Assembly: GCA_019187225.1 (NCBI GenBank)
Contig: JABAQQ010000008.1
Span: forward strand, 16,601 to 80,600
Reading direction: 5' to 3'
Length of the DNA: 64,000 nt
Source: Saprospiraceae bacterium
GTDB lineage: Bacteria; Bacteroidota; Bacteroidia; Chitinophagales; Saprospiraceae
Position numbers and translations under genes: made by a program. This document shows positions 1,055 through 56,306 of the stretch, piece after piece (within the stretch, counting starts at the first letter, position 1; every line of letters starts with the position of its first letter). The notes under the pieces were generated by a model that made no database searches, had not been told where the DNA came from, and saw nothing but the letters and a program-made list of their open reading frames with translations.

Positions 1055-2137
1055 ATGATCGAACACAAACGCCGCCTGCGCATTGTCGCCAAAAAATGGG
1101 AAACCGCCGACACTGCCACGTTCATCCTCGAACCGGCAGACGGCCTGCTGTTCCATTACAAACCCGGCCAATATTTATCCCTGATCTTTGAAACCGTCAG
1201 CGGCGAAAAACGGCGGGCCTATTCTTTCAGCTCCTGTCCGGGAGTAGATCCGCTGCCGGCCATCACCGTCAAACGGGTACCGAACGGCGAGTTCTCCAAT
1301 TGGTTGCTTTCACATGCCGAACCCGGCGACCTGCTTACTGCCACAGATGCCAACGGTCGCTTTTTATTGCCCGAAATTCAACCGGACACCCTTTTTTATC
1401 TCGCTGCCGGTAGCGGCATTACGCCGGTGATAAGCCATTTAAGAAGTCTCTTTTTTGGCGACGGGGTGACTTCGAGTCACCCCGTCGCTAAACCACAGGT
1501 AGTGCTTTACTACGCCAACCGCGACAGCCGGAATACTATTTTTAAAGGGCAGATTGACCGTTGGATGGATGAATTTCCGGGCCGTTTCGAGTGCACGTAT
1601 TTTTTCAGCCGGGAAAAAAACGCCGCACATGCCCTTCACCGCCACCTGAACAACGAGTTGCTGGAACAACTGTTGCTTCGACATTTCGGCGGCAAGCTCA
1701 CGACCCGTGTCCGGCGCAACACCCAGTTCTATCTCTGCGCGCCGAAGACAATGATGCGTATGGCTGAGATGACCCTGCGCACGTTGGATTTCCCGGAAAA
1801 AAACATCCTTAAAGAAACCTTCGTGCCGGAGACCCGCCTTCCCGTCAGGGTAACGGATCGCTCCAAAACCCACGACATTGTCGCCATTGGGAAAAATGAA
1901 CGCATTGAATTTCAAACGTTTGAAGGAGAAACCATTCTGAATGCAGCGCTGCGCCAGGGTATCGCGTTGCCTTATACATGTAAAAGCGGAGTCTGTTTTA
2001 CCTGCTTGGCAAAATGTACGAAAGGCGAAGTGGAGGTGGTCTTTGTGGACGTTACCCGCCGCGAAGGGCCGGGGAATATGGTGAACACGTGTATCGGGTA
2101 TGCTGTGACGGAAAAGGTGGAATTGTGTTATGAGTAG
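1055..2137 (+). CDS. FAD/NAD(P)-binding oxidoreductase with C-terminal plant-type 2Fe-2S ferredoxin domain (PaaE/ferredoxin-reductase type)
   Basis: FAD motif RAYSFSS, NAD motif AAGSGITP, and C-terminal cysteine cluster CKSGVCFTCLAKC...C. Confidence 0.85.
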   Translation: MIEHKRRLRIVAKKWETADTATFILEPADGLLFHYKPGQYLSLIFETVSGEKRRAYSFSSCPGVDPLPAITVKRVPNGEFSNWLLSHAEPGDLLTATDANGRFLLPEIQPDTLFYLAAGSGITPVISHLRSLFFGDGVTSSHPVAKPQVVLYYANRDSRNTIFKGQIDRWMDEFPGRFECTYFFSREKNAAHALHRHLNNELLEQLLLRHFGGKLTTRVRRNTQFYLCAPKTMMRMAEMTLRTLDFPEKNILKETFVPETRLPVRVTDRSKTHDIVAIGKNERIEFQTFEGETILNAALRQGIALPYTCKSGVCFTCLAKCTKGEVEVVFVDVTRREGPGNMVNTCIGYAVTEKVELCYE

Positions 2138-2240
2138 CAGTGGCAGTGGCAGTGGCAGTGGCAGTAGCAGTGGCAGTGGGCAGTGGCAGTGGGCAGTAGC
2201 AGTGGCAGTGGCAGTAGCAGTAGCAGTGGGCAGTGGCAGT
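2136..2240. repeat. hexamer microsatellite (GCAGTG/GCAGTA, occasional GGCAGTG), about 17 units
   Basis: Runs from the reductase TAG to the stop of the four-helix-bundle gene. Confidence 0.95.
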
Positions 2241-2623
2241 TATTTCTTGGGCAAAAATTTCTCAGGATGATCAATCATACCGCCCAACATTCTGCCAACT
2301 TCCTCATAGCGTTTGATTAAGTCCCTGTGTTTCTCAATGGTAATATAACCGCAATCCTTTGCAAAATCCAGGTGCACCGTGGTTTCACTGGCTTCGCCGT
2401 CAGCATCGGTCATCTTGCTGCGAAAGTGGGCCGGAAAAATTCTTTTGCGATAACCTTCCCCAATATTTCCCGGCACAGCACGAGAAGAGCGGCGTATTTG
2501 GTCCGTGAGAGAATAGGTCTCTTCTTTGGGAAATGTTTTAGCCAAAATGAAAATTTCCATGGCTAGTTCATAAGAGAGTTGATAAACTTTCAGAGAACGA
2601 AAATCATTTGAAGCGTCTTTCAT
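2240..2623 (-). CDS. four-helix-bundle protein (TIGR02436 / 23S rRNA intervening-sequence protein / Avd-like family)
   Basis: 127 aa with typical family features: KVYQLSYELAMEIF, EETYSLTDQIRRSSRAVPGNIGEGY, ETTVHLDFAKDCGYI. Confidence 0.85.
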   Translation of the reverse strand: MKDASNDFRSLKVYQLSYELAMEIFILAKTFPKEETYSLTDQIRRSSRAVPGNIGEGYRKRIFPAHFRSKMTDADGEASETTVHLDFAKDCGYITIEKHRDLIKRYEEVGRMLGGMIDHPEKFLPKK

Positions 2624-2658
2624 ATTGATAAGGATTTAAATGAATAAATTTGTTTGTC

Positions 2659-2803
2659 CGCCACTGCCACTGCCACTGCCACTGCCACTGCCACTGCTAC
2701 TGCCACTGCTACTGCCACTGCTACTGCTACTGCTACTGCCACTGCTACTGCCACTGCCACTGCTACTGCTACTGCCACTGCCACTGCTACTGCCACTGCC
2801 ACT
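2659..2803. repeat. hexamer microsatellite (CCACTG/CTACTG), reverse complement of the 2136-2240 array
   Basis: About 24 units. The last three codons and the stop codon of the gldD ORF lie inside it. Confidence 0.95.
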
Positions 2804-3458
2804 TCAACGTCCCCACCAATCTATCTAAGTCCTTTTTCATAAAAGCGATCACCGGCGCGAGCGAATCGGGGCGGCTCTGCGTGTTGAAATACAAGGCGCC
2901 GCGCAGAAAATTCCGGGTGGAATCGGTCAGGAAAAACTGGTAAGACGAGGCCGCAGCACCTTCCACATTGAAGACAATGCCGTATACCTTATCCTCCGGG
3001 CGGTGCACGTGCAATTCGTCAATATAACTGGCTTTGATATTGTGTTTGTTCGTCATGGCAAATGCATCGGCCACCAGTTCGTCAAAGTCTTTGCGGCTGC
3101 GGATGGGGTTGTAACTGCAATAGATTTTGGCGTTCAGTTGCTTCACGTCGAGATTGAACCAGCATTCGTCCTTTGGCTTCTCATCAAAAAAACTCGTGTC
3201 CTTTTCGATCGTCGCGTAGGCAGGCATCTCGAAGGTGAAATTGCAGTACGACGCATCGAACGGCTTGTATGTTTTTTCCGGGTAAACGACCCGCGGATAG
3301 GCGCGGGGTTTCGGTACGGGGGTGTAGTCTTCGCAGGAAGAAAGTAGCAGTGGCAGTGGCAGTAGCAGTAGCAGTAGCAGTGGCAGTGGCAGTGGCAGTG
3401 GCAATATGGTTCGGAAGAGAGGTATGGAAAATCTGTAATTTGTATTAGTCAAAGTCAT
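2787..3458 (-). CDS. gldD: gliding motility lipoprotein GldD
   Basis: Lipobox LLSSC followed by PKPRAYPRVVYPEKTYKPFDASYCNFTFEMPAYA and the rest of a ~190-aa GldD-like body. Both ends of the ORF run into hexamer arrays. Confidence 0.7.
   Translation of the reverse strand: MTLTNTNYRFSIPLFRTILPLPLPLPLLLLLLLPLPLLLSSCEDYTPVPKPRAYPRVVYPEKTYKPFDASYCNFTFEMPAYATIEKDTSFFDEKPKDECWFNLDVKQLNAKIYCSYNPIRSRKDFDELVADAFAMTNKHNIKASYIDELHVHRPEDKVYGIVFNVEGAAASSYQFFLTDSTRNFLRGALYFNTQSRPDSLAPVIAFMKKDLDRLVGTLKWQWQ
3344..3402. repeat. hexamer microsatellite (GCAGTG/GCAGTA) inside the gldD 5-prime coding region
   Basis: On the minus strand it reads CTG CCA / CTG CTA and encodes LPLPLPLPLLLLLLLPLPLL. Confidence 0.95.
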
Positions 3459-3508
3459 GGTTATGGTATGTGATATGAAGCGTAAAGTTCGTTAAAAAAG
3501 GCAATCCA

Positions 3509-3646
3509 CCTACTGCCACTGCTACTGCCACTGCCACTGCTACTGCCACTGCTACTGCCACTGCCACTGCCACTGCCACTGCTACTGCCACTGCCACTGC
3601 TACTGCCCCTGCTACTGCCACTGCTACTGCCACTGCCACTGCCACT
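3509..3646. repeat. hexamer microsatellite (CCACTG/CTACTG), inverted relative to 3344-3402
   Basis: About 23 units. It starts at the TAG of the upstream endonuclease gene. Confidence 0.95.
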
Positions 3647-4610
3647 ATCTCCTGTTCCACTCTTCCACCCGCTCTTCGTAGCGCCGGCGGTCTACCGGCC
3701 AGGCATCCTTGTCCAGCGAGCCTTCGATCTCTTCGTCCAGACCTTTCAACAAATTCGGAAAAAAATCCAGGCCGGTCAGTTTTTCCACCTGGTCAATCGA
3801 AACGGCGTAGTCCATCACCGGCTTGGTACTCATTTCATTGGGCATCACGAATGCAATGGCTTTGTGTTGCTCCGGGGCATACAGCACTTTGTAGTAAGCG
3901 CCCGGCACAGTCACCTTGCTGAAGCCGATGGCGCCCAGGGGCGTCTGGGGCAGCACGGGACCGGTGACGACGTACAGGTTTTCAAATTTGCGCGCCCAGT
4001 CGCGGGTACATTCTTCGAGTTCGCGCCAGATGCCGCCGTTGAAGGGCCTGAGTTGTGGACTCATATTGCTCATCAGGAAAGTTTCGTCGATGGCGGTGGC
4101 GTCGAAAGCCATATCCGCTGCCGCACAGAGATGGCCTTTGTCGTAGCCGCTGCCGTTGTAATCGCGCGGCGTGGCGCTTTCAGTGCGCACGTCCGGGTCA
4201 GGACGGAAGGTATTGGGGCGTTCTGCCCATTTTTTGTTGAGGCGTTCGCGCGTCAGTTCGTAAGCCACCCATTCGGCCTGTTCGTGGTCTTCGCTGTAGG
4301 AAAGGACGAAGTAGGTATGGCGCACCACCTCGCCGGTAGTGGAAGCCGGTAGAATATTTTCTGGAACGTATGATTTCGGATCGCGGATTCCGGATGGCGG
4401 ATTGTTGTCTGCCGGCAGCTCCGTTTTAGGTTGATTATCCTGGGAATCGGGAGTTTTTTTCCCGGAAAACCGGTTGAAAGCCCAGAAAGCCAGGCTGGCC
4501 AACAGGGCAAAAAGTCCGGTTTTGAACAGGAAGCCTCCGGAGTCGGAAGAAGATTTGCGTCGCGCCATGGGTGAGAGTCGTGCGTTTTTTGAAAAATTTT
4601 GTTGGCGCAA
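3645..4610 (-). CDS. DNA/RNA non-specific endonuclease (Serratia NucA / EndoG family), membrane-anchored or secreted
   Basis: Catalytic region GSGYDKGHLCAAADM with downstream MSNMSPQ (metal Asn). N-terminal hydrophobic segment FLFKTGLFALLASLAFWAF. Confidence 0.85.
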   Translation of the reverse strand: MRQQNFSKNARLSPMARRKSSSDSGGFLFKTGLFALLASLAFWAFNRFSGKKTPDSQDNQPKTELPADNNPPSGIRDPKSYVPENILPASTTGEVVRHTYFVLSYSEDHEQAEWVAYELTRERLNKKWAERPNTFRPDPDVRTESATPRDYNGSGYDKGHLCAAADMAFDATAIDETFLMSNMSPQLRPFNGGIWRELEECTRDWARKFENLYVVTGPVLPQTPLGAIGFSKVTVPGAYYKVLYAPEQHKAIAFVMPNEMSTKPVMDYAVSIDQVEKLTGLDFFPNLLKGLDEEIEGSLDKDAWPVDRRRYEERVEEWNRR

Positions 4611-4645
4611 ACATAAACTTTTTGTTGTGAATCAGGCGGCGATTT

Positions 4646-6997
4646 TTATAGTTTTACCACTTTAATTGTTTTTCCCTGGCTTTCATCTTGTTGAATATAA
4701 AAGAAATAAACGCCGCTGGCAAGCGTGGGGATTAACTCCAAAACAGCTGCTTCCGAATCAATTTGCCCCGATAAAACCTGTCGCCCCGCCACATCGAACA
4801 ACCGCCATTGAGCGGGCAATTGGCGTTCAGGCAAAAGACAGCGCACGAACAAGCGCTCGTGAAACGGATTGGGAAAAACCTCGGCTTGCAACGTTTCGAT
4901 GGGTAAAGCAGGTGTTGGCTGGCCGTCGCGGATTTCTACTGCGTCGAGTCCGACTTCGAGAAAAGATTGATCGAAACCGGAAGTTGTGTCTTTTGCTTCA
5001 AAAACGATTCTCCAGTTGCCCGATTTCACTTCTTCAGGGAGAGCGATGGTTCCGGAGGACGTCCAAACGTATGCAAATTTGTTTCTCGACCATATTTCTT
5101 TCCTGATCGTTTCATTTTCAATAAAAACTGAAAACCGGAGAGAGGTATCCAGGAGAGAACACCAGAATTGAAAATGCAGATCTGGCTGCTGAAATCTGCG
5201 CAGGTCAACTTCCGGAGAAACGAGCCGCACCGTGCCGCCATCCACATCGTAAGTTATTTCACCATAGTTGATGCGAATGTCGGTCAGATAGCATAATTCG
5301 CCCCAATCATCAGGTACATCTTCATCAGGTCCTGGTATAAAAGGCTTAAATTTTTCCAAGATACCCCGCTCCCAAAAACCTTTCTGCGCATCCCCTCCCG
5401 AAGTCCATCCCAAATCAAAATAAAAATCGTCATAATAGCCTCTCTGTAAACGCACTACCGGCGATTCCACAGGGTCCATCCACATCTTTTTCAGCGGCAA
5501 ACGGCCCCATAGGACTGGCAGTACATCGAAACTGTCCGCATACACAATCGGCACTTTGGCCCACCCCTTCGCATCGGTTTTTATCTCAAATTGAAATATC
5601 CCGTTGCGGACAACCACTTTGATGTTGGCAAGCGGTTGATTATCTTCGGCGGCTAAAAACAACATGGACAAGTCTTTTCCGGGTGAGGACAGCGGGACAA
5701 GTTCCACATTGAGCAGCGCCACTTCGCTTGGTTTCAGTTCGGCTTTCTGCAAGACAGGGCGAAAGCCTTCCTTGTAAAAGAGCACCTCAAATTCGCCCGC
5801 TTTAGTTTGTCCAGTCCGGTATTCGCCTTGCGCCGAGGTATGCGGAGGTTCCACCTGATCGCCCTTAAAAATAAGGACTTGTACACCTGAAAGAGGGTTT
5901 TTCGATGTCGCATCCTTAACGGTTCCTTCCAGGTAGCAGGCGCGAATGTAGGCGGGCGTGAGTACGAACAAGCCCTGTTCGATGTCGCTTATCAGCGTAT
6001 TGCCCGACGGAAGATAAGGATAGTTGCCCCAGGAGCCATTATAACCGTCACCTTCAAGCGGGCAGGTGTCGTAGTGTCCGACCTGAACAGCGTTTTCCGG
6101 GCGGGTCAGATCGAGCAAAATGAGGCCGTCGCGGTACCAGGAGACGAAAGCAAAGTCATTTAGAATGAAAGCGTTGTGTGGTACCGATCCGCTACCGGGC
6201 GTCGGGCGGAAACGGCTCACTTCGCGGATGTCTTCCAAGTCGCCTGTTTCCCAAATGGAAGCGAAACCGTTGCTGACTTCGTCGGTTGCTATCAGGTGTC
6301 GGCGATCGCGGGTAGGCCAGGTGTTGTGCGGGAATTTACCGGGCGTTTCAAAGGTAGAAAGCACGATGGGGTTCGATTTGTCGTGCATATCCACCACTGC
6401 GACAAAGCCTTCGTAAATATGTGCCGCAAACAAAGTGTCGTTGCCGGCATAACCGTCGTGGATGCCGCCTAATTCATCGTAAAAACCGGCAAAAACAGGA
6501 GAAAAGGGTTGGGATGATATCTTAAATATCCAGGATCGCGTACTGCCGCCATCATTCAGATACAACACCCCGGCAGCAGTATCCACATGCAGGGTATGTC
6601 CGCGCGTCTGTTTTCCTCCCGCATAGTTGATCTCCTTTTTCGGATAACTTGCAGGAAGCGTATCCGGCAAGGCAGACAAGTCATATATTACCAATCCCGG
6701 CCCCGATTCTGCACACACATAAGCAACATGTTGAAAGGTACGCACTTCTTTCCCCCAGTCGTCGGTCATGGGCAGACTGACAATATGCGATGGCACATCG
6801 GGGTCGGTCACTTCTACAATATGCAGGTTTTTGGCGCCCGCCACCAGAGCATATTCCCTTCCGGCCTTTTCATATCCCCACACGCCGGATATTTTTTCAT
6901 TGGGAAATGTAAATTGAGATCGCAGCGTGAAGTTGGAATTTTGAGCAAACGACTGCGCAGCGTAAAGGAGCAGAAAATGAAGGATAAACTTTTTCAT
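4646..6997 (-). CDS. LVIVD-repeat / choice-of-anchor-B-like beta-propeller protein with T9SS C-terminal sorting domain
   Basis: Signal peptide MKKFILHFLLLYAAQSFAQ. Repeats include GLVIYDLS, GFVAVVDM and GLILLDLT. The C terminus VFPNPFHERLFV...GVYFFYIQ...KVVKL is typical of a T9SS CTD. Confidence 0.7.
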   Translation of the reverse strand: MKKFILHFLLLYAAQSFAQNSNFTLRSQFTFPNEKISGVWGYEKAGREYALVAGAKNLHIVEVTDPDVPSHIVSLPMTDDWGKEVRTFQHVAYVCAESGPGLVIYDLSALPDTLPASYPKKEINYAGGKQTRGHTLHVDTAAGVLYLNDGGSTRSWIFKISSQPFSPVFAGFYDELGGIHDGYAGNDTLFAAHIYEGFVAVVDMHDKSNPIVLSTFETPGKFPHNTWPTRDRRHLIATDEVSNGFASIWETGDLEDIREVSRFRPTPGSGSVPHNAFILNDFAFVSWYRDGLILLDLTRPENAVQVGHYDTCPLEGDGYNGSWGNYPYLPSGNTLISDIEQGLFVLTPAYIRACYLEGTVKDATSKNPLSGVQVLIFKGDQVEPPHTSAQGEYRTGQTKAGEFEVLFYKEGFRPVLQKAELKPSEVALLNVELVPLSSPGKDLSMLFLAAEDNQPLANIKVVVRNGIFQFEIKTDAKGWAKVPIVYADSFDVLPVLWGRLPLKKMWMDPVESPVVRLQRGYYDDFYFDLGWTSGGDAQKGFWERGILEKFKPFIPGPDEDVPDDWGELCYLTDIRINYGEITYDVDGGTVRLVSPEVDLRRFQQPDLHFQFWCSLLDTSLRFSVFIENETIRKEIWSRNKFAYVWTSSGTIALPEEVKSGNWRIVFEAKDTTSGFDQSFLEVGLDAVEIRDGQPTPALPIETLQAEVFPNPFHERLFVRCLLPERQLPAQWRLFDVAGRQVLSGQIDSEAAVLELIPTLASGVYFFYIQQDESQGKTIKVVKL

Positions 6998-40397: not shown

Positions 40398-41399
40398 TCA
40401 ATCCCCCGGCCAGAAATGCTCGCACACCTTTCGCAAGTATTCGCCCGGTCGGGCTTTGGAAGAGAGGAACAGCGCATCGCGGCAACCCATTTCATAGGGG
40501 CAATCGTCGAAGATGGCGTCGGGTTTACCGTCCATGTCGAGGTCGCCGTACCAGGAGAGCCGGACGTTGGGATTGAATTCTTCCGATTCGGGTCGTACCC
40601 AGGGCGTAAGGTCTTGTTGGCGTGGTGGAGTAGTAGTATAATCGAGCAAAGTCAATTTGTAATTTTCAACCTTCACATTGAGGTATTCCGAGTCATCCAT
40701 CCTGGCACAGCCGGTGGCGACGAAGATGTAGCTGGGTTTGAGCGTGGTATCATTGGAATCCATTTCACCGCCGGGATGGATGGAAAGCGTGCTGCCCGGC
40801 GCCAGTTCGCCGGAAAGGTACATGTCGCGCACTTCGAGGGTACCGAGCGGTCCGGCATAGCCGGTTTTCATAGGTTGCAGGCTACCGACGATGAATTTAC
40901 TCGCGTCTTTCTGGTTGGTTTTCAGCACTTTGACGTTTTCGCCGTAGAATTCGTTTTTTTCTTCCACGATACGGACTTCGATTTTGCGCAGTTCGTCGGC
41001 GAAAGAATCGCGCTGGTACACGCCGTACCAATTCAGCGGCGGCAGCGGGTTGTCATTCCAGAACAGGTCGCCCTCGTGGTATAGTCCGATCGTGCCCGTT
41101 ACATGCGCGCCGAAGACCCATCCGCTTTTGTCCTGGTGGCGCACTTTGAGCCAGGGGCCATAAGGCGAATTCGGGTCGGTGGTGTCGGCCTGCACCCATT
41201 GGCCATTGTTGTGCGCCTCCACAAAGCGCACTACCATTCCGCGGGTAAGCGAAGCGATTTTTTTCGCGTTTTTATCGGGCGCCTCGCGCATGTTCAGCGA
41301 GGTGGCGGTGACGACCATTTCTTCGGGGAAAAACTGCGATTGGGCAGGCGATTTTAATGTAAAAAACAGTAAAAAAGCAAGTGTGATGATTGATTTCAT
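40398..41399 (-). CDS. secreted SH3-domain-containing hypothetical protein
   Basis: Signal peptide MKSIITLAFLLFFTLKSPAQS and a bacterial SH3-like segment LNMREAPDKNAKKIASLTRGMVVRF. The longer ORF start is a translation of the repeat array. Confidence 0.6.
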   Translation of the reverse strand: MKSIITLAFLLFFTLKSPAQSQFFPEEMVVTATSLNMREAPDKNAKKIASLTRGMVVRFVEAHNNGQWVQADTTDPNSPYGPWLKVRHQDKSGWVFGAHVTGTIGLYHEGDLFWNDNPLPPLNWYGVYQRDSFADELRKIEVRIVEEKNEFYGENVKVLKTNQKDASKFIVGSLQPMKTGYAGPLGTLEVRDMYLSGELAPGSTLSIHPGGEMDSNDTTLKPSYIFVATGCARMDDSEYLNVKVENYKLTLLDYTTTPPRQQDLTPWVRPESEEFNPNVRLSWYGDLDMDGKPDAIFDDCPYEMGCRDALFLSSKARPGEYLRKVCEHFWPGD

Positions 41400-41410
41400 T
41401 GAGTAGAATT

Positions 41411-41551
41411 TAGACGTTGGATTTTTAGACGTTGGACTGTTGGACGTTGGACGTTGGACTATTGGATGTTGGACTGTTGGACTATTGGATGTTGGACTGT
41501 TGGACATTAGATGTTGGATGATGGGTGTTGGATAATTGGACGTTGGATTTT
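41411..41551. repeat. 7/8-nt microsatellite (ACGTTGG/ACTGTTGG/ATGTTGG), G/T-rich arm
   Basis: About 18 units, beginning 12 nt from the SH3 gene start codon. Confidence 0.95.
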
Positions 41552-42580: not shown

Positions 42581-44518
<1,938 letters not shown>

Positions 44519-55385: not shown

Positions 55386-56306
55386 ATGACAACCGCATCA
55401 GCTTACTCCTTTCTCATCCAACAACTCAGCCCCCGCTACGGCCCCGGCGAAGCGGCGGCCATCGCGCGTATTGTCCTGGAAGATGTGTTTGGGGCAGAGG
55501 GTAGAAGGTGGACGGTAGACGGTGGAGGGCAGACGGTAGACGGTTTATCCGCCGAAGCCCCCGTGAAGGCGGAGGGATGGACGGCGACAGAAGTGGAACA
55601 ATTGAAAAACATCACCGCCCGGCTGATAAGCGGCGAACCAGTGCAGTACGTGCTCGGCCAGGCGGATTTTTTCGGCCTGAAATTCAAAGTGAATCCCGCC
55701 GTGCTGATTCCCCGGCAGGAAACGGAAGAACTCGTGGCATGGATACTGGAGCATCTGAAAAACAGTAGGATAGAACACCCCGCCGTGCTCGACATCGGCT
55801 TAGGCAGCGGCTGTATCGGCCTCACGCTGAAGAAAAAATTCCCCGGACTGCAATTGTTCGGCCTGGAAAAAAGTCCCGCCGCGCTGGAAGTGGCAACAGA
55901 AAATGCCCGCCGCATCCTGGGCGAAGATGCGACGTTCCAGTTTGTCGAAGGCGATGTCTTCGACTACCGCGTTTGGGTTAAATTTCCTTTTTTAGACGTA
56001 GTCGCAAGCAACCCGCCCTACATTCCGAACGTACAGAAAAGTATCATGCCCGAACACGTGACGGCGCACGAACCCGCATTGGCCCTGTTCGTGGACGATG
56101 AGGACCCGCTGTCGTTCTATCGCGTGATCGCGGATTTTTCTTTACAAAAACTTAAACCCTGCGGCGCACTTTTTTTTGAATGCAACGAGTTCAACGCCGG
56201 CGAAGTCGCAGCATTGTTACAGGAAAAAGGATTTGTTCGGGTAGAATTGCGCAAAGACCTCGCGGGCGCAGAAAGAATGGTATGCGGGATGGTTGCGCGG
56301 CATTAA
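55386..56306 (+). CDS. prmC: peptide chain release factor N5-glutamine methyltransferase
   Basis: VLDIGLGSGCIG, VASNPPYI, EPALALF. It contains a repeat-derived insert, GRRWTVDGGGQTVDGLSAEAP. Confidence 0.85.
   Translation: MTTASAYSFLIQQLSPRYGPGEAAAIARIVLEDVFGAEGRRWTVDGGGQTVDGLSAEAPVKAEGWTATEVEQLKNITARLISGEPVQYVLGQADFFGLKFKVNPAVLIPRQETEELVAWILEHLKNSRIEHPAVLDIGLGSGCIGLTLKKKFPGLQLFGLEKSPAALEVATENARRILGEDATFQFVEGDVFDYRVWVKFPFLDVVASNPPYIPNVQKSIMPEHVTAHEPALALFVDDEDPLSFYRVIADFSLQKLKPCGALFFECNEFNAGEVAALLQEKGFVRVELRKDLAGAERMVCGMVARH
55499..55559. repeat. GGTGGAC/GGTAGAC repeat block plus GGTTTATCCGCCGAAGCC tail, inside prmC
   Basis: ggtagaaggtggacggtagacggtggagggcagacggtagacggtttatccgccgaagcc. Confidence 0.85.

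Follow-up and report, generated by a model that had tools for sequence, protein, structure and literature searches.

An inverted-repeat arm translated as the signal-peptide core of GldD in a Saprospiraceae bacterium, and a suggested link of such arms to genes of the 23S rRNA intervening-sequence protein family

In a stretch of 64,000 nucleotides from a Saprospiraceae bacterium (GenBank assembly GCA_019187225.1, contig JABAQQ010000008.1, positions 16,601 to 80,600 of the forward strand; hereafter the window), the gene gldD is associated with four arrays of hexanucleotide repeats that form two inverted pairs. Comparison with related loci documents well that one of these arrays, which we call B1 (3343..3403, minus strand), is translated as the core of the GldD signal peptide. 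We consider it likely that B1 is a translated arm belonging to a generic family of arrays, that gldD is served by a promoter situated in the loop between B1 and its inverted partner, and that the arms constitute no dedicated regulator of this gene. More surprising than a signal peptide built from a repeat is the link of arms of the same type to cassettes that carry a gene of the 23S rRNA intervening-sequence protein (IVP) family, one of which lies just downstream of gldD. A preliminary description of the region had proposed that pairing of the two arms around the gldD start encloses the start codon in a loop; its claims are taken up below beside the results that bear on them.

The gldD coding sequence (2787..3458, minus strand, 223 aa) had been assigned from its sequence in the preliminary description, and profile searches bear this out: the product matches Pfam PF25593 with an E-value of 3e-63 (213 bits against a cutoff of 27) and the equivalog TIGR03512 with an E-value of 4e-62 (209 bits against a cutoff of 120), and an identical protein is on record from a Saprospiraceae metagenome-assembled genome (MAG; P0001). 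The reading frame, 3458..2787 on the minus strand, begins MTLTNTNYRFSIPLFRTI-LPLPLPLPLLLLLLLPLPLL-LSSC. Array B1, (CTGCCA/CTGCTA) x 10 and 59-61 nt long, is read in the gldD frame as CTG-CCA/CTG-CTA, that is as Leu-Pro/Leu-Leu, and supplies codons 19-38, the hydrophobic h-region of the signal peptide, as LPLPLPLPLLLLLLLPLPLL. It is followed by the lipobox L-S-S-C (3333..3344, minus strand; codons CTT TCT TCC TGC), which matches a PS51257-type core pattern and whose Cys (3335-3333), four codons past the last complete repeat unit, would begin mature GldD. This Cys, together with the succeeding E-[DE]-Y-T-P-V-P-K-P-R-A-Y-P, stands after a short hydrophobic signal in 120 of the 120 homologs listed. 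Hence the earlier proposal that the repeat furnishes the whole h-region up to the lipobox Cys holds. A downstream start with an ordinary signal peptide was looked for, and there is no ATG, GTG or TTG codon between the array and the Cys. As an in-frame stop lies 11 codons 5' of the ATG at 3458, with no intervening start codon, the candidate starts are limited to ATG 3458, TTG 3452 and TTG 3404; with B1 placed directly before the conserved lipobox Cys, any of them yields a repeat-encoded h-region. ATG 3458 is favoured among them because it and its context (…cataaccATGac…) are also found in the relatives L085 and L086 (L numbers denote the loci compared).

The physical properties of the repeat-encoded tract are compatible with such a role. 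On the Kyte-Doolittle scale its best stretch of 10 residues averages 2.72, where the orthologs have a median of 2.83, and the core LLPLPLLLSSC fits the lipobox core pattern. A signal-peptide core would demand only hydrophobicity, and the Leu-Pro/Leu-Leu tract appears hydrophobic enough for a repeat to be tolerated there. The remainder of the protein shows between the window and L081 51 synonymous and 5 nonsynonymous codon differences in the mature region, so that mature GldD, as judged from these substitutions, is under strong purifying selection and the gene is not decaying. Several features nonetheless weigh against our interpretation. The signal peptide is atypically long, its Cys being residue 42 where the ortholog median is 25; its prolines number 7 where the median is 1; and it has no K or R among its first 7 residues. 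Moreover, in the sister strain CHB4 the PGAP annotation placed the gldD start at TTG (203 aa, MPLPLP…), whereas the annotation of the present MAG uses ATG (223 aa), although the underlying DNA (window 3404-3458) is identical; the annotated N-termini differ by 18 residues. We present the start codon, the use of the promoter and the lipoprotein processing as inferred.

The arrays were called with Tandem Repeats Finder (TRF), which gave all four a period of 6 and scores of 94-225: 3343-3403 (10.2 copies), 3512-3646 (22.5), 2660-2803 (24) and 2133-2240 (17.5). The first two had been given before as 3344-3402 and 3509-3646, essentially the same intervals. All four are long simple sequence repeats (LSSRs), having units within 1-11 nt and lengths greater than chance. 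On the minus strand the order is a gene of the Endonuclease_NS family, array A1, a unique segment of 108 nt (3511-3404), B1, gldD, array A2, the IVP gene and array B2; the arrays thereby compose two inverted pairs, 3646-3512/3403-3343 and 2803-2660/2240-2133, the second of which encloses a gene. The G-rich arm A1, (GTGGCA/GTAGCA) x 22.5 (3512..3646, minus strand), starts at the stop codon of the upstream nuclease gene (3645..4610, minus strand; PF01223, 2e-53), as had been noted: the TAG at 3647-3645 sits in the first A1 unit. At its other end A1 terminates in a small stem and a run of T6. The loop of this pair (3404..3511, minus strand) holds the T6 run (3499-3494), the promoter-like motif GAACTTTA (3490-3483), the gldD ATG (3458-3456) and codons 1-18, which encode the n-region MTLTNTNYRFSIPLFRTI. 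Complementarity between A1 and B1 had been claimed, and it amounts to 91-97% over 61-68 nt. The predicted RNA fold of 3670..3320 has an energy of -176.6 kcal/mol (z = -7.8; 0 of 100 shuffles as stable) and leaves the ATG at 3458 unpaired. The placement of the start codon in a loop of about 106 nt thus stands as regards geometry, there being 108 nt between the arrays, but the presence of the stem on gldD mRNA is doubtful, for reasons given below. In the second pair the G-rich arm A2, (TGGCAG/TAGCAG) x 24 (2660..2803, minus strand), provides the closing WQWQ of GldD together with its stop codon, TAG (2789-2787), in agreement with the observation that gldD terminates within a third array. The C-rich arm B2, (CTGCCA/CTGCCCA/CTGCTA)n (2133..2240, minus strand), overlaps at 2133-2137 the stop codon of a convergent gene for a ferredoxin-reductase-type oxidoreductase (1055..2137, plus strand). 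The fold of the entire A2-IVP-B2 segment (2815..2120; -320.7 kcal/mol, z = -12) encloses the reading frame in a stem of about 100 bp. The array layout and its complementarity are not due to chance.

Natural variation reinforces the view that B1-type sequence is read as signal peptide. Three loci of a sister cluster at 85% identity, L144, L083 and L143, share mature gldD DNA that is 95-96.5% identical, a common n-region MSDKKTAR and a common end LLFSSC, and have distances from ATG to Cys of 66, 99 and 129 nt, or 22, 33 and 43 residues, which is the length polymorphism of the signal peptide that had been predicted. Inside, these signals are a mixture of CTGCC-type units of 6 and 7 nt, and the alleles differ in length by multiples of three (33 and 63 nt). 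It had been argued that slippage can never shift the frame as the unit has 6 nt; this is arithmetically true for the allele in the window, but the relatives mix 6- and 7-nt units and remain in frame all the same, which indicates that the frame is kept by selection and not by unit size alone. Presumably replication slippage resizes the tract, and in-frame variants alone would survive. Of 92 loci, 18 have tandem repeats that overlap the signal-peptide segment (60 nt) and 2 have repeats that overlap the mature part (520 nt); L067, at 74% identity, is an independent case with a coding array at -94..-7. The closest relative outside the strain pair, L081 (P0002; 96% identity), has an ordinary signal, MRFAFYFSLFVLFLVSC, and the upstream array is absent from it. 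CHB4 (L142), for its part, has a DNA identity of about 98% to the window, with 2 of 177 mature GldD codons differing. Here the noncoding arms have changed in size: A1 has 23 units in the window vs 14 in CHB4, A2 24 vs 17, and B2 107 nt vs 88 nt (about 3 units), while the GldD C-terminus is KWQWQ* in the window and KWQ* in CHB4. The coding array B1 has 10 units in both, with a single C/T change (LL to LP), and the loop DNA, from the motif up to the array, is identical.

The loop of the A2/B2 stem, just downstream of gldD, harbors a gene for a four-helix-bundle protein of 127 aa (2240..2623, minus strand) that belongs to the 23S rRNA intervening-sequence protein, or Avd-like, family (PF05635, 1e-31; TIGR02436, 1e-29), which is related to the Avd protein of diversity-generating retroelements. 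Homologs of this protein number more than 7,500 at E < 1e-20, and identity across phyla is about 70%. The window, CHB4 and L086 have the gene at the gldD 3' site, and L082, L083, L084, L087 and L144 lack it there; four of the latter (L083, L084, L087, L144) have a hairpin without an IVP gene, and in L082 only 3 nt separate the two stop codons. We compared the window with IVP sites in L145, L147, L148, L149, L150 and L152. The five further sites lie between DUF4197 and PrsW, between genes for an OmpA-like protein and GldN, after RidA, between NuoF-like and NuoG-like genes, and in a Calditrichaceae genome. GGCAG- and CTGCC-type arms flank the IVP gene at 6 of the 6 distinct sites, that from another phylum (Calditrichaceae) included; at the five other than gldD the GGCAG-type array ends about 20-65 nt before the IVP ATG and the CTGCC-type array starts 0-15 nt past its stop. 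Of the 8 window pairs listed, just 3 are of the GGCAG/CTGCC type, and a six-out-of-six association in spite of this background speaks for the arms and the gene as belonging together. At the NuoF-like/NuoG-like site (L150, 1440-1930) the arms are translated in both neighbours, as the C-terminus …RRSGSSSSSGS* of the NuoF-like protein and as an N-terminal extension, MNLLSAITATATATAAS…, of the NuoG-like protein.

These comparisons suggest that the GGCAGT/ACTGCC arrays are the inverted arms of IVP cassettes that resemble rRNA intervening sequences (IVSs), are possibly mobile and lie outside rRNA. A bolder formulation is that IVP cassettes are mobile elements that colonise the intergenic DNA of operons across phyla, that RNase III cuts their stems, that their arms rewrite the termini of adjacent proteins and are even able to give rise to a functional lipoprotein signal, and that hairpins devoid of a reading frame, such as that at the gldD start, are non-autonomous derivatives. 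We put this forward tentatively, as a possibility with the odds still against it. Two findings speak against the cassette interpretation: the A1/B1 loop is without an IVP gene and holds instead the 5' end of gldD, and other array families in the window are without an associated IVP gene in the data examined. No IVP paralog beyond that at the gldD site was found in the 739 kb made up of the window and the related loci.

The arrays at gldD are part of a wider population. The window has about 29 arrays, nearly all of them intergenic and 0-15 nt from gene ends. In a census of inverted pairs in the window and 144 related loci (739 kb), 46 pairs were found, 35 with the G-rich arm first and 8 with the C-rich arm first, and 5 of these 8 exceptions are the B1/A2 combination spanning gldD rather than true neighbour pairs, which makes A1/B1 and A2/B2 the natural units. 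The G-rich-first polarity holds equally on the two strands, and a gene starting beside a hairpin consequently has the pyrimidine-rich arm in its sense strand. In such an arm the second codon position is T or C (Leu, Phe, Pro, Ala, Ser, Thr), which would explain how arms of this kind pass as signal-peptide cores. An array of the same unit family as the IVP arms, a perfect (GGCAGT)10.5 (42821-42883), lies in frame within the reading frame of an ABC-F ATPase (44518..42581, minus strand), where it forms an (SG)10 linker near residue 545. Arms, which are hypervariable, often abut or enter the ends of neighbouring reading frames and are translated where the frame gives tolerable residues, and the LP/LL signal and the WQWQ tail of GldD can be regarded as two cases of this general behaviour.

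Further arrays of the window touch reading frames in various ways. Several inverted pairs fill whole spacers from stop to start; two of them, 53068-53137/53172-53308 and 53944-53987/54262-54330, begin 3 nt after the upstream stop or within it and end exactly at the ATG (53309 and 54331, respectively); the second has a loop of 274 nt with a further nested palindrome. An (AGACGGT) x 7 array at 55496-55544 lies within a long predicted reading frame (55386-56306), where it is read as …GRRWTVDGGGQTVDG…. At 41416-41548 an array of heptamers and 15-mers stands just 5' of the likely true start (MKSIITLAFLLFF…) of the reading frame 40398-41507 (minus strand), the longest version of which runs through the array as SNSPTSNSPT…, likely a trap for start-codon annotation. 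Finally, the reading frame 640-909 ends at 909, where a (GGGATTG)n array (909-1049) begins; the corresponding position in CHB4 carries a YidD annotation.

By what route an arm came to lie within the gldD signal peptide may be sought in the spread of a cassette, in local seeding from Leu-rich CTGC(T/C) codons or in template switching. Of these the local alternative deserves to be spelled out: slippage starting from gldD's own TGG-CAG-TAG and its Leu-rich CTG-CTA codons, together with template switching among imperfect inverted repeats that kept the arms complementary, would have generated them in place, and the IVP gene would have been inserted later into the loop of a hairpin. It can draw on the KWQ-stop sequence (AAGTGGCAGTAG) that is conserved in array-free relatives, on CTGC(C/T) strings that are already present in array-free signal peptides, on the hairpins without IVP gene at the same 3' site in L083, L084, L087 and L144, and on the array families of the window that have no IVP gene. 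What tells against it is that all six independent IVP sites have GGCAG/CTGCC arms, though other arm families are at least as common, and that the same core recurs in a different phylum, so that arms and gene seem to travel together. On balance we regard a purely local origin as rather improbable.

Somewhat less probable still, in our judgement, is the interpretation of the hairpin as a control device, in which A1 forms part of the gldD leader and pairs with B1, the resulting stem, about 60 bp long, modulates translation or the stability of the mRNA, and copy number is a dial that evolution can turn. The stem is certainly predicted to be very stable, at the energy and z-score cited above, and A1 differs by 9 units between strains that are 98% identical. 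Besides, the layout recurs in several lineages, and in L048 (2830-3000), an independent lineage, it does so with a different heptamer, AAGGGCA/TTGCCCT, in the same succession of stop, G-rich array, motif, ATG and C-rich stretch within the signal peptide. This recurrence is a point against our own reading, as a hairpin around the start could be selected and not merely tolerated. However, of 98 orthologous loci, the 9 that show complementarity between the signal peptide and the upstream region are all array-bearing, while in the other 89 complementarity equals that of mature-region and shuffled controls. Since complementarity is confined to array-bearing loci and arms of the same family occur at unrelated sites, the pairing is generic and is no conserved control element of gldD. 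L067, too, has a coding array, yet a small hairpin there is complete upstream of the ATG. An Rfam search of 1900-4800 yielded nothing beyond a sub-threshold match to isrG (44.6 bits against a gathering score of 100), rejected as a case of hairpin on hairpin with a 109-nt loop as an insertion, and found no rRNA in this interval. A comparison of G-U wobble asymmetry, as a way to distinguish RNA- from DNA-level selection, was uninformative, because both strands show the G-rich arm first. As far as comparative sequence evidence goes, a conserved cis-regulatory leader hairpin of gldD is not supported, nor is a leader/coding-sequence pairing specific to this gene.

A further objection to the same interpretation comes from what lies between A1 and the ATG. 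Upstream of gldD, 32 loci (the window and 31 others), array-free lineages included, share a conserved noncoding motif, TTTTT-N4-GA(A/C)CTTTG, and in the window the motif GAACTTTA (3490-3483) is located inside the A1/B1 loop, 24 nt 5' of the ATG. The Bacteroidetes -7 promoter element is TAnnTTTG, which the motif resembles, and across the Saprospiraceae lineages it probably represents a promoter or regulatory site. In the window TAnnTTTG occurs upstream of genes 9 times, compared with about 1.7 expected. A sigma-70 promoter scan of the loop gave nothing useful, the sigma-70 consensus not covering Bacteroidota. A sigma-54 reading of the motif, judged by eye against the sigma-54 consensus, was discarded, as the spacing is one nt short and most loci are without the GG. 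The end of A1 (3517-3500) has a terminator-like stem with the T6 run, a weak match to the consensus. With a promoter-like motif within the loop, A1 is probably not in the gldD mRNA, and most likely, as the simplest reading of these signals, A1 is the 3' end of the nuclease transcript and the gldD mRNA starts inside the loop; the earlier description of the upstream array as the 5' leader of gldD is thereby made unlikely. A qualification has to be made, inasmuch as the window motif has A where a final G is conserved. This degenerate -7-like element favors the leader interpretation, and owing to it read-through transcription could matter more here than in the relatives.

The picture that we prefer is thus one in which gldD would be transcribed from its own promoter inside the loop, with a main mRNA that would be free of A1, and in which the A1:B1 stem would form only on read-through transcripts from the nuclease gene. 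RNase III, by analogy with known intervening sequences, would probably cut this stem and so insulate gldD from upstream transcription. On a transcript beginning in the loop, A2 offers an alternative partner for B1: the fold of 3478..2640 has a predicted energy of -317.6 kcal/mol (z = -6.9), and in this model long-range B1/A2 pairing is possible unless ribosomes or B2 compete.

We hold two remaining explanations to be very unlikely. A DNA switch in which recombination between A1 and B1 flips the 108-bp loop, with its promoter-like motif and start codon, and so turns gldD on or off would fit the geometry of an invertible promoter, there being inverted repeats of about 60 bp around promoter and start, but it is highly improbable given that the loop is in the ON orientation in all loci with the layout (the window, L142, L086, L083, L144, L084 and L082), that the 17 gene calls surrounding the CHB4 locus include no recombinase, and that the flipped loop, read by eye, gives no in-frame start codon. 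An equally slim chance attaches to an assembly error at the repeat, or to a gldD that is a pseudogene or uses another signal. In its favour are the origin of the window in a MAG, the susceptibility of repeats to misassembly and the unusual length and proline content of the signal peptide. Against it, the 10-unit array and the loop are the same in the separately deposited CHB4 MAG, homologous arrays are found on separate contigs of other samples, strong purifying selection acts on the mature region and the frame is kept across length variants.

Among known systems, the closest functional analogue is the opa gene family of Neisseria, and the closest structural analogue the rRNA intervening sequence. 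In opa, CTCTT pentamers lie in the coding region of the leader peptide and vary in copy number between strains (PMC3960869). As in that case, a slippage-prone tandem repeat in the signal-peptide coding region of an envelope protein encodes the hydrophobic part in gldD, and copy number varies among close strains (L144, L083 and L143; the window and CHB4 are equal, at 10 units). Unlike the 5-nt unit of opa, with which slippage shifts the frame and switches it on and off, the 6-nt unit or 6/7-nt mixture of gldD changes the length of the h-region alone, and the gldD repeat is, furthermore, one arm of an inverted pair; no on/off switching of gldD was seen, all alleles compared being in frame. In Coxiella burnetii's intervening sequence, an S23p reading frame lies in the loop of a terminal-inverted-repeat stem that is cut by RNase III, strain-variable heptamer repeats stand beside the reading frame, and the element is regarded as selfish or mobile (PMC4990558). 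The A2/B2 cassette is similar in having a homologous four-helix-bundle reading frame in the loop of a long inverted-repeat stem. It differs in that such cassettes lie between protein-coding genes and not in helix 25 or 45 of the 23S rRNA, and in that their arms are tandem arrays of 60-300 nt as opposed to a unique stem of 28 bp; the A1/B1 loop, moreover, has no reading frame of the S23p/IVP family. RNase III cleavage is shown for the Coxiella element, whereas for the present cassettes it is suggested by analogy.

Prokaryotic LSSRs and heptamer arrays, as summarized from Mrazek 2007 in PMC4679880, have units of 5-11 nt, are mostly intergenic, with many of them ending a few nt 5' of start codons, occur in some Bacteroidetes and vary between strains. 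The Saprospiraceae arrays are likewise abundant, short in unit, mostly intergenic and strain-variable. The heptamer TAACTGA described by MacGregor 2015 forms direct repeats with just one inverted, and neither IVP genes nor signal peptides are mentioned in that work (PMC4679880); the arrays analysed here, by contrast, are inverted pairs with the G-rich arm first, of several unit families, one of which is tied to a cassette and translated. A eukaryotic parallel is the insertion/deletion in the APOB signal peptide (PMC4201729), a length polymorphism of a leucine repeat (CTG). There too in-frame variation of repeat length in a signal-peptide core is tolerated in natural populations; different from gldD, the repeats of the APOB type are trinucleotides that differ by few residues and have no hairpin partner. 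Literature searches found nothing relevant on intergenic repeats of Saprospiraceae and no report linking IVP genes outside rRNA with tandem-array arms, neither of which is proof of absence.

The gldD locus provides a natural example of an essential targeting signal that is built from and resized by an unstable repeat while the gene is retained, and hence a natural test case for the tolerance of lipoprotein export to h-region length and proline content. It also serves as a warning for annotation, as start codons and N-termini beside such arrays are called inconsistently. More generally, the long-unexplained protein family of 23S rRNA intervening sequences is tied here, as the comparisons suggest, to a recognisable hairpin cassette outside rRNA. 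This may offer a handle on the role of the very abundant IVP genes and of the intergenic arrays of Saprospiraceae, be it in RNase III processing, in mobility or in the remodelling of protein termini.

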